This document shows, one piece after another, positions 2,715 to 51,204 of a stretch of 64,000 bases of DNA. A model generated the notes under the pieces. It searched no databases. It was not told the DNA's origin and was given only the letters and a program-made list of their open reading frames with translations. Each line of letters opens with the position of its first letter. Positions within the stretch are counted from its first letter, which is position 1. Both the position numbers and the translations under genes were made by a program. Source of the DNA: Octopus vulgaris (taxonomy: Eukaryota); assembly GCA_951406725.2 (NCBI GenBank), contig OX597814.1, positions 96,720,001 to 96,784,000 of the forward strand, in the 5' to 3' direction.

Positions 2715-2829
<115 letters not shown>

Positions 2830-2909
2830 TTATAATATGTACGCGTATACATAGATACATAGATACAATATATATAAGACATAATTATCTAATTTTTATG
2901 CTTCCTAAC

Positions 2910-3140
2910 ACAATAATATGAAACGTACGTCCGATAGGTGACTAAATATGAGTTTCAGATGATTGGGAATCCACGATTTCTTTCTCTTTTGCCTATCGTT
3001 TGCCTATTTGAAAATGCTGTGGTTTTTTTTTTTTCTCATTTTAAGTAGCCAGAAACCGAAGCCAGATGTCGTGGATTCCCACTTCGGCATCTGAAACTCA
3101 GAGTTTTATCTTGACTATCGAGTAATGTAACATATTATTG
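2910..3140. repeat. Imperfect inverted repeat with decayed hammerhead-like motif in the right arm
   Basis: tgagtttcagatg..gggaatccacga versus tcgtggattccc..catctgaaactca; outer ataatatg/catattat. Confidence 0.7.
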
Positions 3141-4717: not shown

Positions 4718-6735
4718 TTAGAGTGGCCTTTATTTTTCAACTTTCTAAAAGTTTAGTTGCCACACCCTATCTTGTTCCAATTAACAAATAACCAATCTAT
4801 GCAAAATTTTAATTCAATCGAACAACTGCAAGGCGACCCTCATCGACCATGAAATTTTGAAGTTTTCGTCCGGAAAGTTATTTTTTCAGATAAAAATTTT
4901 ATATCCCGTATATAATTTTCTCTTAAATTAAAATATTGTTCAGACTTATTCATAATAATAGAAGAATAAGTGATAATTAATATAATGGGGAAGGCAACTT
5001 GCAAAGCTGGGGTCAGAGTAGAGGTATAGGGCAAAAACCTATTTTTTCGCCGTCATCCAGTCGGCGGCCAGCCGTGAACGAGTGAGGTTGTGAGATGCAT
5101 TCGGCCACTGAAAGAATTGCACCGCACCTAATGGTAGTTTAGAGAAATAAAATATTAAGAAATATACGCTAGTGATAATCAGTAAACTAGTATGACTAGT
5201 GCACGTTTGTAAATAGAAGTTAATTTATTTGATTTAAACTTGTAAGCATTCATTCATTTTGTTGTGGGACATTATGATATAGAACTTCCCCTAATGTGTT
5301 GGTAGCCCTGACAAAGTTGTAATACCATGTTTATAACCTTTCCGTTTTTATAATGTTATGTGTTTCGTATACTTATTTTCAACGCCTTAGAACAACGTTT
5401 AGAGAAGTGGGACACACAGAAATACAGCACAAATTTAATCTGAATGACTGTCAAGAATTAGTGTTGCACTGGGATGAAAAGCTCCTCCCGGCATTCATAG
5501 GCGTTGGAAAGGTTGATAGACTGACTATAACAGTAACTTTTCAAGGCAAGGAGCAATTGTTGGGACTCCCTAAAATTCCAACATCTTCAGGAGAACAGCA
5601 AGCCATGGTTGTTTACCAAGCAGTGGAGAAATGGGGTATCACCAACAAAATGCAGGCACTTTGCTGTGATACGACAACAAGCAACACAGGTCGAGTAAAT
5701 GGTGCCTGTAACAAACCTAGAAAAATTGTTCAATCGCAACCTGTTGTACTTCCCTTACTATCATCGTATTTTTGAGTTTGTTTTTAGGAGTTGTTTTGAC
5801 TTACTGATGAGTACAACTTCTGGTCCAGGCAGAGTGCTTTTCAAAAGATGGAAAGAAACCTGGACGAAAGAAATTTTACATAACTGGTAGCCATGAAGTT
5901 CCTGATGATGCCCGCTCTACCATTCTTGGATTTCTGAATATCACCTTTCTACAAAAAAACAACAGTGAAATGATTACCGAGAATTGTTGGAACTAACGAT
6001 GATCTTTCTTGGCGGTATTCTGAAGAACGGGATATCGTTTCGTACACCAGAAGCTGTAACTCATGCTAAGTGGATGTCAAAAGCAATTTACGCATTCAAG
6101 AGATACCTGTTTCAAGATAAATTTCAGTTATCTCCTAGGGAGAAGAACTCTTAAAGAAGAATATGTATTTTTCTTGCTCGAGTGTGTGTTCGAGCCTAGT
6201 TTCTGTCATCAGAAGCAATTAAAGCAACTTATGATTTCCTATTCATGCGTCAACGGATAAATTATCAGGATATTAATCCAGAAATCAGTACGGCTGCTGC
6301 GAAAGAATTTTCCAACCATTTCTGGTACTTAGCTCCCGAAACTGTGGCTCTAACTATATTTGATGACAATGTTCCAACAGAGGTAAAGGCAAATATTGTT
6401 CAAGTTATGCTGGAAACAGACACAGGTGAAGAAGAGGAAGAAGGAAAAAAATCAACTGAAGAGGTACATCCTGCACCAAAATGATTTTTCTTCCTTAACA
6501 AATATCGAGTTTTCGTACATTGTAACTCTTCGTACAAAAATCTTCTTCACAAGATTTTCTATCAGCATTGATTTCCTCGAGAAAGACCCTTCAACATGTA
6601 AGAATGATCCTAGTTACAAAAGTGGACTTGAAAAACTCGAGAAGACAGTTGTTGTGAATGATGTTGCAGAAAGAGATGTCAAACTCATTCAGGATTACAA
6701 TAACATTCTCACAAAAGATGAAACTGAAACAATTT
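4718..6735 (+). mobile_element. Decayed DDE transposon, hAT-like (probably hATm type), 3' end missing
   Basis: Frameshifted transposase blocks LHWDEKLL, CDTTTSNTG, LLYFPYYHRIFE (decayed CxxH), HAKWMSK (RW motif), HFWYLAPE, VVNDVAERDVKL; putative terminus TTAGAGTGG at 4718. Subfamily label is from motif recognition only. Confidence 0.75.
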
Positions 6736-6736
6736 C

Positions 6737-6918
6737 AGTCCACAAAAATGTCCAGCCTTATCACGTTCGGTGTGTTGCGCTGAATCTCTCCGACAACTAC
6801 TTTAAGGATACGCGTGTTCGTGAGTGCTCAGCCACTTGCACGTTAATTCCACGAGCAGGCTGTTCTGTTGACAGGGACAACTGGAACACAAGCCGTCGTA
6901 ACCGATAGAGTACCAGTT
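6737..6918 (+). mobile_element. 3' fragment of SINE family B
   Basis: Matches the 3' half of the copy at 15524-15843 (cgctgaatctc..ctcagccacttgcacgttaatt..cgtcgtaacc..gagtacca). Confidence 0.8.
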
Positions 6919-6959
6919 AACCTCTTTCTATACCTTGTATGTCTTCAGTATTGAGTAAT

Positions 6960-7522
6960 TGCTTAAAATTTTGGCACAGGATCAGCAACATGGGGAGAAG
7001 AGGTTAGTCGATATTATCGATCCCAGTGCTTGGTTGGTGCAATATTTTATCGCTCTAGAATGAATGAAAGACAAAGTCGATCTCGGCGGGATTAAAACTC
7101 GGAAAGTAATAAGCCGGAAGAAAATGCCGTCTAGTATTTTGTCTGATATGCTAACGTTTCTGCCAGCCCTTCGTCATTTTCAGCATAGAGTGATGATAAC
7201 TGGTTTCAAATTTCAGCACAAGGATGGCAAGTTTGGAGGAAAGAATAAGTCGACTTCATTGGCCCCAGTACTCAACTGGAACTTATTTTAATCGACCCCG
7301 AAACGAGGAAAGGGGGAATTTGAATTCAGAACTTAAAGACGGATGACATGCCGCTAAGCATTTTACCCGGCGCAGTAATGATTCTGCTAGCTCACCACCC
7401 TTCGCACGCACACTATATTATTAATTAATTGTTACTACTCTATAAGGCGGCGAGCTGGCAGAATCGCTAAGTAAAATACTTAGTGGCATTTCGTCCTTCT
7501 TTACCTGTTGAGTTCAAATTTT
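6960..7522. mobile_element. Cluster of diverged SINE family A copies (two minus, one plus head)
   Basis: Degenerate matches to family A at 6960-7170(-), 7200-7400(-), 7445-7522(+). Confidence 0.8.
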
Positions 7523-8002
7523 GAAACCCATATATTGTCCATGTAAATGACATTTTTAACTTGAAGGATAGGGAGAGTAAAAGTGAGATCGAATCATATA
7601 GCCTGAGAGATAGCTACAAACGGTTTGGAATTTACTCGTACCAAATTTTCTTCCCCTCTTTGAACAGTTCACGTTCGCTAATTTTCTATCCTCTTTTTTA
7701 TTGATCTTGTCAGCCATACTTCGTGTGTATATGCGCGCGCACATGTGTTTGCGTGTGAGTCTATGTTCCAACAATATCAGTGAGTTCTAGACACGTGGTC
7801 TTATCGTGCTGTTTCTGGATCAACATCTGTGAATACACCACGCTACGACCATCGTTGTGCGAATGAAGACCTCTCACTGTGATTGTTCATTATAAGCAGC
7901 TTAGTTTGGTCATTTTCATGTAAGAGAAGATGACACATGAATAGTAATACTTACTTGTTTGTTTGGGTTTCTTTTTTCTTCTTTTTTCTATTTTTATTTT
8001 TA

Positions 8003-11296: not shown

Positions 11297-11478
11297 GTGT
11301 GTACCGTTGGCGATTTTTTTCCCTCCGTCTTCCCTTCTTTGGATCTTTCCTTTTCCTATGTTTCTGACGAAGAGCTCCGCTCGAAACGTTAGACCCGCCT
11401 TCTTTCCTTCTTTCCTGAGCGTCCAATAATACTATACTTGTTCCACGTCCTCGCGTTGTTGTGTTTTCATGTTTGGAT

Positions 11479-21075: not shown

Positions 21076-21701
21076 TCTATATATATAAAACTGTAGTTGT
21101 GTGAGTGTCTGTCCCCTTCGATTTAGATTCCCACATTTTGCGGTGCAGTTTAACCAAATTCGGGTAGCTTATAGTCGTGATTCATATCGAGCCCGTCTGA
21201 GTATTAGCGCGCGTCTACGATGAGTCTACGATTTTAAAAATAATTTAACATCATTTTTTATTCCATTTTAATGCATAATTTTTCGTGTGTCGATGGCGGC
21301 GGAGTTGGCGTCCACGCTCACACCTGCACCTGTGGGGAAGGGAGTGTAAGGAAATCAACGTCGTAATGCGTTGTCAAGGAGACCAGCGTTCTTTTAGAAC
21401 AACGACTTCATGGCTTGAAGACACCAAAACAGAAATGGCTAAGAAAGCATCTACATGAGTCTACGATTTAAAAAAAAAATTACCATCGTTTTTTTCCATT
21501 TTAATGCATTTTTTCGCTATTATATAAGGGAAGTAACTCTCTAAAAATGTCTACGATGAGTCAACGATTTTTCAAAAAATTTACCATCATATTTTTTCCA
21601 TTTTTAATGCATTTTTTGCTATTTTTTGGCTATAACTCTCTAAAAATGCTTATATAGTTATTTCCCTTACAAACCCGAGCAACGCCGGGCGATACTGCTA
21701 G
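21076..21701 (+). mobile_element. Non-autonomous Helitron, complete
   Basis: 5' TCTATATATATAAAA, 3' hairpin cccg-agcaacgc-cggg then CTAG; inserted between A and T; same family as 43310-44217. Confidence 0.92.
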
Positions 21702-21779: not shown

Positions 21780-21869
21780 TGTAGTTCTATATTTAAGAGA
21801 TGAAGAATTATGTACATTATTTACATTATCTACATTCGATGGATATTTGTCCTCATCTTGTTTGTTGTT

Positions 21870-21915
21870 AACACAACGTTTCGGCTGACATACCCTCCAG
21901 CCTTCATCAGGTGTC
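21870..21915 (-). ncRNA. Minimal type I hammerhead ribozyme motif
   Basis: Minus strand: gacac CTGATGA a ggctgg-agggtatg-tcagcc GAAA CG T T gtgtt. Confidence 0.85.
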
Positions 21916-21968
21916 TTGGGGAAATTTCGAACCTGAGTTGTCATTCCTAAGGTATTTTGTTCGATGAC

Positions 21969-21970
<2 letters not shown>

Positions 21971-22048
<78 letters not shown>

Positions 22049-22051
22049 TAC

Positions 22052-22124
<73 letters not shown>
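21971..22124. repeat. (TTA)n microsatellite
   Basis: Direct reading. Confidence 0.98.
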
Positions 22125-22128
<4 letters not shown>

Positions 22129-22193
22129 TCTTTGCCTGGAATCGAACTCGGAATCTTGGGGTTAGTAGCCAGCGCTCTTAGCCACTGCGGCAT
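22125..22193 (-). promoter_or_regulatory. tRNA-like sequence with Pol III A/B boxes (SINE head; not a functional tRNA)
   Basis: Minus: atgccgcagTGGctaagagcgctggctACTaaccccaagattccGAGTTCGATTCcaggc; D-loop TGG, anticodon-like loop and T-loop GTTCGA present, acceptor stem absent. Confidence 0.75.
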
Positions 22194-22223
22194 ATGAGAA
22201 CCCAGATTCGAAATTACCCCCAA

Positions 22224-22269
22224 GACACCTGATGAAGGCTGGAGAGTATATCAGCCGAAACGTTGTGTC
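22224..22269 (+). ncRNA. Minimal type I hammerhead ribozyme motif
   Basis: gacac CTGATGA a ggctgg-agagtata-tcagcc GAAA CG T T gtgtc; perfect 5-bp stem I. Confidence 0.88.
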
Positions 22270-22342
22270 AACAACAAACAAGATGAGGATAAATATCCGT
22301 CAAATGCAAATAATGTAAATAATATATATATATATATATCTA

Positions 22343-24819: not shown

Positions 24820-25330
24820 AGTTATGAGTTCACATTAGGCGTATTCTGTATTTTTCGATAGATAAATGTTCTTTATTTAAACTTTCCCGTACAGAAATTG
24901 TTTCTTTGAACTGGTAGATGGGTGAAACTGAAATTCGGTTGGAGATTCCCTGCACATTTTTCTATGTGTTCACACAAAGGTATCTGACTATACCTTGGGA
25001 AACGGATCTGTTCCTTAAGTGGTGTGGTTCACCGTCTAAGTGACATACTTGCCTGTCTTATATAGTTGCGTCCACAACCAGTTATATCATAAATTATCGG
25101 ATGCACAAATGAAGTTGGTCTTAATTGTAAAACTCTCTCCTTGTTTGAATTGGAATTCCGAGCCATCTAGTAGGTTGGGGCATGTTCCACAGTTTGGACG
25201 TTCACACTTTTTAAACATTGGTTTTGTGGTTGCTGTTTATAGCTTTGCATTTGTCAACAAGGCTAAAATTAGTTTTTCCAAGTTTTCAATATATCGTAAA
25301 GTGTTTAACATAATTTTAGATTTAAAGGTT
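24820..25330 (-). pseudogene. Penelope-like element GIY-YIG endonuclease remnant
   Basis: LLTNAKL..KKCERPNCGTCPNL..FTIKTNFICASDNL, then frameshifted GCGRNYIRQ..KEQIR..EHIEKCA. Confidence 0.75.
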
Positions 25331-25664
25331 GGTTATCTAATTAATAATAAGACTTACATAAGACTTACATGACCTCAACAGGGGACATTTCAAATAATCT
25401 GAATTGAAGTATATCTCGCAAGATTGATCAACCAATGTTTATAGGTAATTATAAATGCTTTCAGGCAGTGAGGAATTTAAGGGAATTCCTATATTACACA
25501 TTAAAGAGAATATGATTAGCACAGCCTAAAAGGTTTACAATACTATGACACAATTCCCATGTGTACATGTTTGAGTGATTGTGCTTTTATTAAGGTTTGT
25601 ATTGGGCTGAATTATATATTAAAACCAGTGGAGCACTAACTGAATTATAATACATATGTATATA

Positions 25665-30999: not shown

Positions 31000-31192
31000 T
31001 ATAGTGAATCCAAACAAAGAAGACCAAACAAAAAAACAATATCGCGAGGACGTGGTATAAGTACTGTATTATCAGACGCTCAGGAAAGGAAGGAAAGAAG
31101 ATTTAACGTTTCTAGCCAAGCTCTTCTTCAGAAATAGAGGGAAGTCCAAAGGAAGGGAAGAAGGAGGAAGAAAATCGCCAACGATACACACA
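31000..31192 (-). mobile_element. Second copy of the hammerhead-bearing short repeat
   Basis: Homologous to 11297-11484; motif attt CTGAAGA a gagc-ttg-gcta GAAACGTT aaat at 31101-31135(-). Confidence 0.75.
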
Positions 31193-42409: not shown

Positions 42410-43309
42410 GTGAAAAATTAGCAAATGCATACTAGATAGAATTATACCTCAAATCAGAAACAAAGTTAAGCTCCCTCTGTGGAGCTCGTTTGGGGATGTA
42501 ATTACATGGTTTAACTCCATAGTAGATAAAGAACATACCCAGTTCATACAATTTAACATCAACTATCCTTCTAAATAAAGCATTAATATTTGCTCGCAAT
42601 TTCGTCAACATTTCTAGGTCAGACATAGGTATATTAGCTACAAGGAAGACTTTAATAAACTTTAATGGACATAATTGGTTTAGATCTGATTCAATGGATT
42701 GTTTTAACATAACCATGGGATCACTAGACTCGGCTCAGATAACTGATTTAGTAGGCTTATATATCTTGTTCCAAATAATGGATAGTTTCCCTAATTTACC
42801 GGGTGGCTTATATATAGATGACGCGCTCTTTGCTACTAACGGTTTATCCAAACCGAGAATAGACAGGATTAAGAAATCATTAAGAAGATACCTCCTAGAA
42901 TTCTTTAACCTTAATATAGTATATTATATGAACACTAAAGTTATGAATTTCCTAGATGTCACTTTAGATCTTAATACTAAACTTTATTATCGATATAAAA
43001 AGCCCAATCAGGTAATACAATATATTAATGTTTCCTCAAATCATTCTAAAACTGCCATTAACAGTTTAGTCACAGCTATATCGATAAGTATCTCCAATCT
43101 TATGACTAATGAGGATATATAGTGCGCATGCACCCGTTTATAAGCAAGCCTTAAAATTAAGTGGCTTTAGCAATCAAATTTACTATATACCCGATTCTAA
43201 ACTTAAAACAAAGCTATCTAATAATAGTAACTCTGATTCGAACTTAACTAATACGCCACTGAAAAATGCAAGTATAATTAAGCCTTCAGGTAATTATAAT
43301 TATATTAAA

Positions 43310-51122: not shown

Positions 51123-51204
51123 ATATAGAAGGAGCTTCTACAGGACTCTTCTGAAGATTTCATCGGAATGAAACAGTTCTAGTCCTGTAGAAGCTCCTTC
51201 TATA
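51123..51204. repeat. Perfect ~24-bp inverted repeat enclosing a hammerhead-like core
   Basis: tatagaaggagcttctacaggact / agtcctgtagaagctccttctata around ctt CTGAAGA tttc-atcg-gaat GAAACAGTT ct. Confidence 0.85.

Follow-up and report, generated by a model that had tools for sequence, protein, structure and literature searches.

A tRNA-like head, probably a Pol III promoter, in the pseudo-LTR of a Poseidon-type Penelope element of Octopus vulgaris

The fold-back at the locus

The window analysed here is a stretch of 64,000 nucleotides from Octopus vulgaris (assembly GCA_951406725.2, contig OX597814.1, positions 96,720,001 to 96,784,000 of the forward strand). It contains a fold-back made of two inverted pieces of one repeat family, with the following parts.

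21783..22196, minus strand: long-tail pseudo-LTR copy with head, (AAT)n, ORF start, hammerhead and full tail (query positions 1-182, L001 left)
22125..22196, minus strand: tRNA-like head, best match tRNA-Arg among those tested, candidate Pol III type-2 promoter
22182..22192, minus strand: A box, damaged relative to the family's commonest letters
22138..22147, minus strand: B box, intact
21970..22124, minus strand: (AAT)n linker, variable in length from copy to copy, into which other retroelements insert
21783..21944, minus strand: start of the Penelope ORF with its ATG at 21944, 54 codons that are open in the window copy and overlap ribozyme and tail
21870..21915, minus strand: left minimal type I hammerhead, with its cleavage site predicted between 21875 and 21874
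21783..21869, minus strand: tail with two preferred 3′ ends, long at ~21783 and short at ~21805-21825, the putative RT start sites (compare the accessible text of PMC11167929)
22194..22322, plus strand: second copy, inverted, more 5′-truncated and with a short tail
22224..22269, plus strand: right minimal type I hammerhead, in the second copy, with cleavage predicted after 22264

The inverted arms align at ~89-90% identity over 21798-21944 (minus) and 22194-22341 (plus), the final ~20 nt of the right arm being (TA)n overlap. An earlier note on this DNA had given the arms an extent of ~130 bp; the arms are real, but the left copy exceeds that extent, running from the head to the end of the tail (22196-21783). 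The minimal type I hammerheads that the note saw in the two arms are present at 21915-21870 (minus) and 22224-22269 (plus). Both have a 5-bp stem I, CUGAUGA, one bulged A, a stem II of 5-6 bp, GAAA, a palindromic ACGU and a GUU site, and both match the minimal motif in the accessible text of Cervera and de la Pena 2014 (PMC4209133); the proposed Rfam check gave no hammerhead call in the region or in L022. The two ribozymes differ at three sites, two in loop II and one that keeps a stem I pair, in line with the note's observation that differences fall in the stem II loop or are neutral to pairing, and three sites are too few to mean selection.

The tRNA-like head had also been recognized correctly, as a minus-strand A and B box followed by an AAT-type repeat; ARAGORN and Rfam made no tRNA call in the window. 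The stretch between head and ribozyme, reported to lack a T4 run, is indeed free of one, as is the whole unit from head to tail, and the first T run on that strand lies at 21646. The long-tail copy begins 4-5 nt upstream of the A box, and the second copy joins the head through a 3-nt overlap at 22194-22196. At two positions, one of them a box-consensus G, the A box has letters other than the commonest of the family, and as a consequence of this damage the window copy is probably dead. A target duplication was not resolvable at the window locus within the microsatellite, and 3-4 diverged copies of an AT-rich repeat of 40-70 nt lie immediately left of the insertion (21213-21634).

Two truncated copies from one insertion

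The fold-back is almost certainly a single insertion of a Penelope-type retrotransposon, with two truncated copies head to head; it is one insertion product and not a working cassette. Head-to-head pairs are present in 68 of 116 non-redundant loci, with breakpoints that vary from locus to locus. One long and one short tail characterize 64 of these pairs, two short tails the other four and two long tails none, and this distribution is the same in all four sampling schemes. Exact repeats of at least 9 nt in the outer flanks occur in 24 of the 65 pairs that remained after three were excluded for tandems or a locus edge, compared with 0.8% of 2,132 mismatched control flank pairs, and the target duplications measure ~9-15 bp.

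These properties resemble those of known Penelope-like elements (PLEs). The hallmarks given in the accessible parts of Craig 2021 (PMC8557442, including the legend of its Fig. 2) are an inverted truncated copy and a tail of 30-40 bp at one end only, and an inverted 5′-truncated copy with a one-sided tail is what the 64 pairs display. The Anolis Poseidon element, in the accessible text of Frangieh 2024 (PMC11167929), has both strands cut and extended, with reverse transcription starting at two internal sites that bound the tail. Pairs of minimal hammerheads on opposite strands, 100-700 bp apart, have been reported previously (PMC4209133, accessible part). The arms within one insertion share 20 derived letters where 6 are expected, but at 10.1% their divergence nearly equals that of unrelated copies (10.7%), so that this sharing is weak evidence. 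A hairpin in the tail was not significant (z −1.6).

A dispersed family

The 2.8-Gb genome was searched for family copies with exact patterns. A 41-nt ribozyme pattern gave 1,117 matches, a 37-nt head pattern 659 and a pattern of the 37 nt upstream of the head 329; the reversed control gave 0 in each case, indicating that the matches are not due to chance. Dividing these counts by the share of copies that match exactly (6/65, 6/46 and 3/21, all small denominators) yields estimates of ~12,000 copies of the ribozyme, ~5,000 of the head and ~2,000 of the head-upstream stretch. The co-occurrence of arm and head, which the earlier note had asked to be checked, holds genome-wide and is not a chance insertion at one locus. 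Among 60 loci chosen by ribozyme or arm, a sense head lies upstream in 38 and an antisense head in 7, and the other 15 are headless. In five of the headless loci the 3′ end of a restriction-like-endonuclease LINE, presumably of the Dong/R4 type, lies within the linker. Such LINE ends split head from ribozyme in the (AAT)n linker of L050, L076, L084, L087, L089 and L029, and a different recurrent insert occupies the linker of L004, L019, L025, L027, L059 and L108. That the head is itself an independent, LINE-driven SINE inserted into (AAT)n was considered and rejected, since (AAT)n is lacking upstream of heads and both inverted arms can contain a head. The copies diverge by 5-8% from column majorities and none of those examined has a whole open frame; the family thus looks inactive. 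Viral contigs that were searched contained no match.

The autonomous parent

The unit of head, (AAT)n, ribozyme and tail is the pseudo-LTR of an autonomous Poseidon-type element and not a borrowed Penelope end, and the head is fixed in this parent. The element is ordered as head, (AAT)n, ORF start, hammerhead, tail, the remainder of an RT/GIY-YIG ORF, stop codon, ~40 nt and head again. It was located through Penelope RT matches upstream of the head in L108 and L100; a genome search with the Pfam GIY-YIG profile, another route to the parent, led mostly to Neptune-like families without similarity to the end of the cassette. BLAST placed the head ~40 nt past the ORF stop in 24 of 30 loci chosen by their ORF end (query locus included) and past the ORF in 25 of 30 chosen with a GIY-YIG stretch of the lizard Anolis, two sets that overlap by at least three loci. 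By eye, the remaining loci of both sets retain the first bases of the head, and no headless version of the element was seen in either. The proposal that Penelope RT/GIY-YIG mobilizes the cassette is supported by this adjacency of head and Penelope ORF and by the insertion scars. The classification of the cassette as a non-autonomous SINE/retrozyme hybrid does not hold, since the head is built into the autonomous element's pseudo-LTR as a constant component.

At the other end of the ORF, the tail is in frame with the ORF start, and the junction of tail and ORF N-terminus is present in 29 of 30 ORF-start loci, with a variable upstream extent. A pseudo-LTR derived from a 5′-truncated tandem copy upstream is visible in these ORF-start loci (L243, L245). 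The ORF N-terminus, including the 54 residues coded by the left copy of the window, aligns with an 847-aa relative, and the residues over the ribozyme core are kept. The RT domain matches RVT_1 (E 3e-7), the family ORF compares with full-length relatives at 57-59%, and the Anolis GIY-YIG region matches the family (E 1e-19); the Pfam GIY-YIG profile gave no score on L191. Translations lack the Zn-finger linker of Neptune/Nematis type, and quick trees (SH-aLRT support only) put the family beside P0001-P0004 and far from the Neptune-like family of the same genome. By these sequence comparisons the family appears to belong to the EN+ Penelope-like elements, in the Penelope/Poseidon clade.

Other Penelope-related sequences were observed along the way. 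L257 and L268 share the same internal deletion, joining the ORF N-terminus to head position −13, possibly as a small non-autonomous derivative. The window holds a decayed Neptune-like Penelope linker with a GIY-YIG remnant (24836-25347, minus) and an RT fragment with a YIDD motif (~42740-42920, plus), which presumably resembles Naiad-type Penelope elements. A young Neptune-like family with many open frames of 781 aa, found in L127, L132 and many further places in the genome, has a long 3′ region of CCAAT/CRE-like tandem repeats.

The ribozyme and the inserted 3′ end

The earlier note had envisaged a stand-alone SINE/retrozyme whose Pol III RNA is trimmed at its 3′ end by the hammerhead and mobilized by Penelope, the two outward-facing ribozymes acting as a unit. 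The trimming step is largely refuted. Just 2 of 348 copies end near the cut site (query 85-100), inserted copies extend 50-90 nt past it and there is no peak of 5′ starts there, indicating that the inserted template was uncleaved and that cleavage does not make the inserted 3′ end. In the Anolis Poseidon element, according to the accessible text of PMC11167929, the ribozyme cleaves only with the protein present, and insertion in vitro does not need cleavage. Jumps of the template at the cut site in ORF-start loci were also considered and rejected; the junctions consist of microhomologies, and position 93 is not enriched in 5′ starts (5/348 at 93-94).

The ribozyme core, predicted to be more conserved than its flanks, is not: it diverges by 6.7%, compared with 6.2% upstream and 8.6% in the tail. 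Stem II differs from the majority at 6.9% of sites in head-chosen loci, cores are intact in 34 of 65 copies and there are no compensatory pairs. This lack of conservation is what neutral decay would produce in dead copies, and it is hardly informative on the source elements. By prediction a dimer has a slight edge in stability over two monomers (−31.7 vs −28.2 kcal/mol), but the cassette carries its ribozymes on opposite strands, so that they cannot form a dimer within one RNA. The ribozyme is coding sequence, and it probably cleaves solely as a dimer or with the help of protein. The window also has a second repeat family of minimal hammerheads with a short stem II (11359-11400, plus; 31108-31131, minus), with an 89% match in L137, and a hammerhead-like motif (51151-51174, plus) resembling one ~1.3 kb downstream of a Neptune-like GIY-YIG in L147.

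A stand-alone element would account for the co-occurrence of head and arm and for the rare tandem arrays (L032, L070). Short copies moreover exceed ORF-linked copies in linker length (median 60.5 vs 27 nt; n=70, 21; p 3e-6), so that short copies could have source loci of their own. Nevertheless, the head belongs to the autonomous element, the 3′ ends lie beyond the cut site, the ribozymes cannot pair within one RNA and each locus has different breakpoints. Furthermore, when sampling bias is taken into account, short and ORF-linked copies are not told apart by any diagnostic substitution: the letter at ribozyme position 61, a candidate subfamily marker, goes with a head letter used to select the head samples, and head position 47 (10/26 vs 0/25, p 0.0007) is a CpG site and one of ~250 columns tested. 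We give the note's model as a whole hardly any credence. Compared with the SINE definition of SINEBase (PMC3531059; <700 bp, non-coding, with a tRNA-derived A/B-box head), the short copies, at ~300-450 bp, agree in length, in being non-coding and in their head; they depart from it in lacking a partner LINE and a 3′ simple-repeat tail, their 3′ end being the Penelope tail with Penelope scars and their (AAT)n internal. The tandem hammerhead units that define retrozymes occur in 2 of 60 ribozyme-chosen loci. In L032 (450-2100), six tandem units of middle, ribozyme and tail follow a single head in a retrozyme-like array.

The head as a candidate Pol III promoter

Taken as a whole, our preferred reading is one Poseidon-type insertion of head-to-head 5′-truncated copies, with a head that is fixed in the pseudo-LTR and likely a Pol III promoter (probability roughly 0.6). 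The head, considered on its own, probably acts as such a promoter; this would account for the many short, SINE-like copies that begin at it. It was compared with 25 distinct genomic tRNA sequences from 30 loci, and its best match is to two tRNA-Arg genes (z 6.5-9); these sequences cover six isotypes only, so that the assignment to tRNA-Arg is provisional.

The distribution of 5′ ends is the first line of evidence. Of 129 aligned heads, 101 reach the A box; 76 of these end at −16..0, 15 end 17-40 nt upstream and 10 beyond, which overstates the wall. Sampling by head or ribozyme misses many ORF-linked copies, of which 2/42 match the exact head pattern and 0/42 the ribozyme pattern, and pattern counts suggest that ORF precedes ~30% of heads, so that the true proportion is below 76/101. 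A second method puts 5′ ends at −14..0 in 89 of 97 heads, and the truncation rate within the ORF is 0.0014 per nt (27 events). Two loci, L253 and L270, have the head as their 5′ boundary and extend from it into the ORF. In L276 and L279, on the other hand, the copy carries on across the head into ORF lying upstream, which speaks against a Pol III start.

The second line of evidence is the scarcity of T4 runs. Majority columns of the ORF have none in 2,403 nt, where synonymous shuffles lead one to expect 2.7-3.0 (P 0.03-0.04), in contrast to 7 in 1,791 nt of a Neptune-like ORF. Natural decayed copies have a T4 density of 0.38 per kb, compared with 2.4 in 43 T-matched relatives, from a set of 58 of 79 metagenome loci kept after short matches and duplicates were removed by hand. 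Together, 5′ ends near the A box and a T4-free ORF appear to fit Pol III transcription.

The same observations can be read differently if a piece of tRNA origin once landed in the 3′ UTR of a Pol II-transcribed master element and has been carried along as a passenger, with RT stalling or snapping back at a hairpin just upstream of the A box. Such a hairpin exists (−9.6 kcal/mol, about −24..+3) and coincides with the wall of 5′ ends, and its palindrome is the centre of many head-to-head junctions, many of them perfect fold-backs. The want of T4 runs reaches a P of just 0.03-0.04 and is common to 8 of the 43 relatives, several of which have T-rich UTRs and no A/B box. Also in favour is Penelope of D. 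virilis, which has a TATA-less, LINE-like internal promoter (PMC2377424, accessible text). On the other side, 36 of 43 heads without an adjoining inverted piece still end at −15..0, and the ends fall at the loop and 5′ arm of the hairpin and not at its 3′ foot, where a stall would be expected. The head or its first bases are also retained in 30 of 30 ORF ends, and A and B boxes recur at the same place in a second lineage (L311, below). On balance a passenger head is unlikely, but it is the chief rival to the promoter reading.

A further alternative is that the head is a processing signal: a longer Pol II transcript would be cut by an RNase P-like activity at tRNA position 1, which lies 7 nt ahead of the A box, and would thereby receive its 5′ end. 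Among single 5′ positions −7 is indeed the most frequent (13/97), but −14 is just as common (12/97), and the head lacks a cloverleaf fold and is missed by ARAGORN and Rfam, making this option very improbable.

Returning to the head as promoter, it sits at the position in the pseudo-LTR where the Penelope promoter lies, that promoter being within the pseudo-LTR according to the accessible text of PMC2377424. The A and B boxes are not visibly better conserved than the remainder of the head. Three RNA-seq runs (unstranded, ~6% of each) gave 5,664-7,742 family-like reads per run, equally in both directions and without a pile-up of ends, and these reads neither show nor exclude Pol III RNA. A promoter of this kind would raise the question of how an uncapped Pol III RNA gets translated, which counts against the promoter reading.

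One of 29 relatives with downstream sequence, L311, has A and B boxes, CCA and AAT repeats followed by a hammerhead over the ORF start. The probability of meeting its box pattern by chance in 450 nt is 0.0008, 4 of 150 shuffles reach the tRNA score of L311, its unit has 2 T4 runs where 6.1 are expected, and a quick tree groups it apart from the octopus family. This is no more than suggestive of a second lineage with the boxes at an equivalent place. The L311 head (2829-3020), which lies after the stop of a tandem Poseidon-type element with a 918-aa open frame, looks unlike that of the octopus family and may be a separate capture.

A possible route of insertion

In the mechanism that we propose, Pol III would start ~7-14 nt upstream of the A box and read through the T4-free unit. 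The element's protein would cut both strands of AT-rich DNA ~10 bp apart, and one cDNA would be begun per strand, at the two internal tail sites of the uncleaved RNA, giving one long and one short end. cDNAs begun at the tail nearest the RNA 5′ end would run out at the head and produce short SINE-like copies, and those begun one unit further down would carry ORF; the two cDNA ends would then join through short overlaps into a fold-back. The Poseidon template requires ORF sequence past the RT start sites (Frangieh 2024, PMC11167929, accessible text). Since solo copies lack this downstream ORF, internal priming on a head-initiated RNA that runs into the ORF would be favoured.

Meaning and comparison with known systems

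By definition SINEs are transcribed by Pol III and rely on LINEs. Here, tRNA-headed short copies by the thousand bear Penelope scars, and their head is also that of their autonomous parent, which implies that a Penelope pseudo-LTR can give rise to a SINE-like repeat directly; repeat pipelines would divide this family into 'SINE' and 'Penelope'. In addition, Penelope integration has left an extensive natural archive in these short copies, in which the long and short ends of 64/68 pairs and the ~9-15 bp duplications bear on steps left open by in vitro work.

The papers compared here are cited for their accessible text. The Poseidon element PAc of Anolis carolinensis (PMC11167929) shares an RT with a C-terminal GIY-YIG, a hammerhead over the ORF start, and two 3′ ends that bound the tail with both strands used; an 836-aa Anolis protein with a 38% match to the family is probably PAc. 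A tRNA-like head goes unmentioned in that text, whereas the octopus pseudo-LTR holds A and B boxes at which most sampled copies end. Penelope of D. virilis (Schostak 2008, PMC2377424) likewise has a promoter region in a partial-tandem pseudo-LTR that drives the downstream copy, but this promoter is TATA-less and LINE-like with an intron, in contrast to the tRNA-like type-2 layout here. Schistosome Sm-alpha and Sj-alpha (PMC6765202, PMC8490949) are short repeats with a Pol III-type promoter followed by a type I hammerhead; they are tandems that self-cleave to monomers, with no mobilizer identified in those texts, whereas the octopus copies appear to be dispersed head-to-head insertions of uncleaved RNA, and their autonomous parent has been found.

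Non-autonomous PLE derivatives are already known (PMC8557442; 10.64898/2026.07.22.740005). Among them, the animal non-LTR retrozymes (Cervera and de la Pena; Li 2026, 10.64898/2026.07.22.740005) are short non-coding derivatives of PLE pseudo-LTRs with type I hammerheads, but they are tandem repeats by definition, and octopus tandems are found in 2/60 loci. The words 'tRNA' and 'promoter' are absent from the accessible text of the Li 2026 preprint. Helenus, Ajax and Cassandra (Kojima 2024, PMC10886601) have in common with the octopus family a Pol III-type small-RNA promoter in a retrotransposon terminal repeat, without being LINE-dependent SINEs; they are non-autonomous LTR elements with PBS and PPT. 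In the octopus family, by contrast, a Penelope pseudo-LTR forms the repeat, and the head is borne by the autonomous element too.

Ohshima and Okada are said to have assigned the octopus SINEs OR1, OR2 and OK a tRNA-Arg origin in 1994. They reportedly share a tRNA-Arg-like head with the present family, and their length is near that of its short copies. OR1 and OR2 are listed as CORE-SINEs (PMC4824008, PMC4758252), whereas the body here is the Penelope ORF start; the family is thus set apart from them by description, and may equal OK. A repeat annotation of Octopus vulgaris (PMC13282606) has no 'ribozyme' in its accessible text and no 'Poseidon' in its supplement. In the openly accessible literature no description of a tRNA-headed Penelope was found; Repbase, Dfam or Ohshima and Okada 1994 may list the sequence as a SINE or as a Penelope. 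PLE scars, minimal hammerheads, opposite-strand hammerhead pairs and tRNA promoters in LTRs are all known; what is new is the tRNA-headed Penelope pseudo-LTR.
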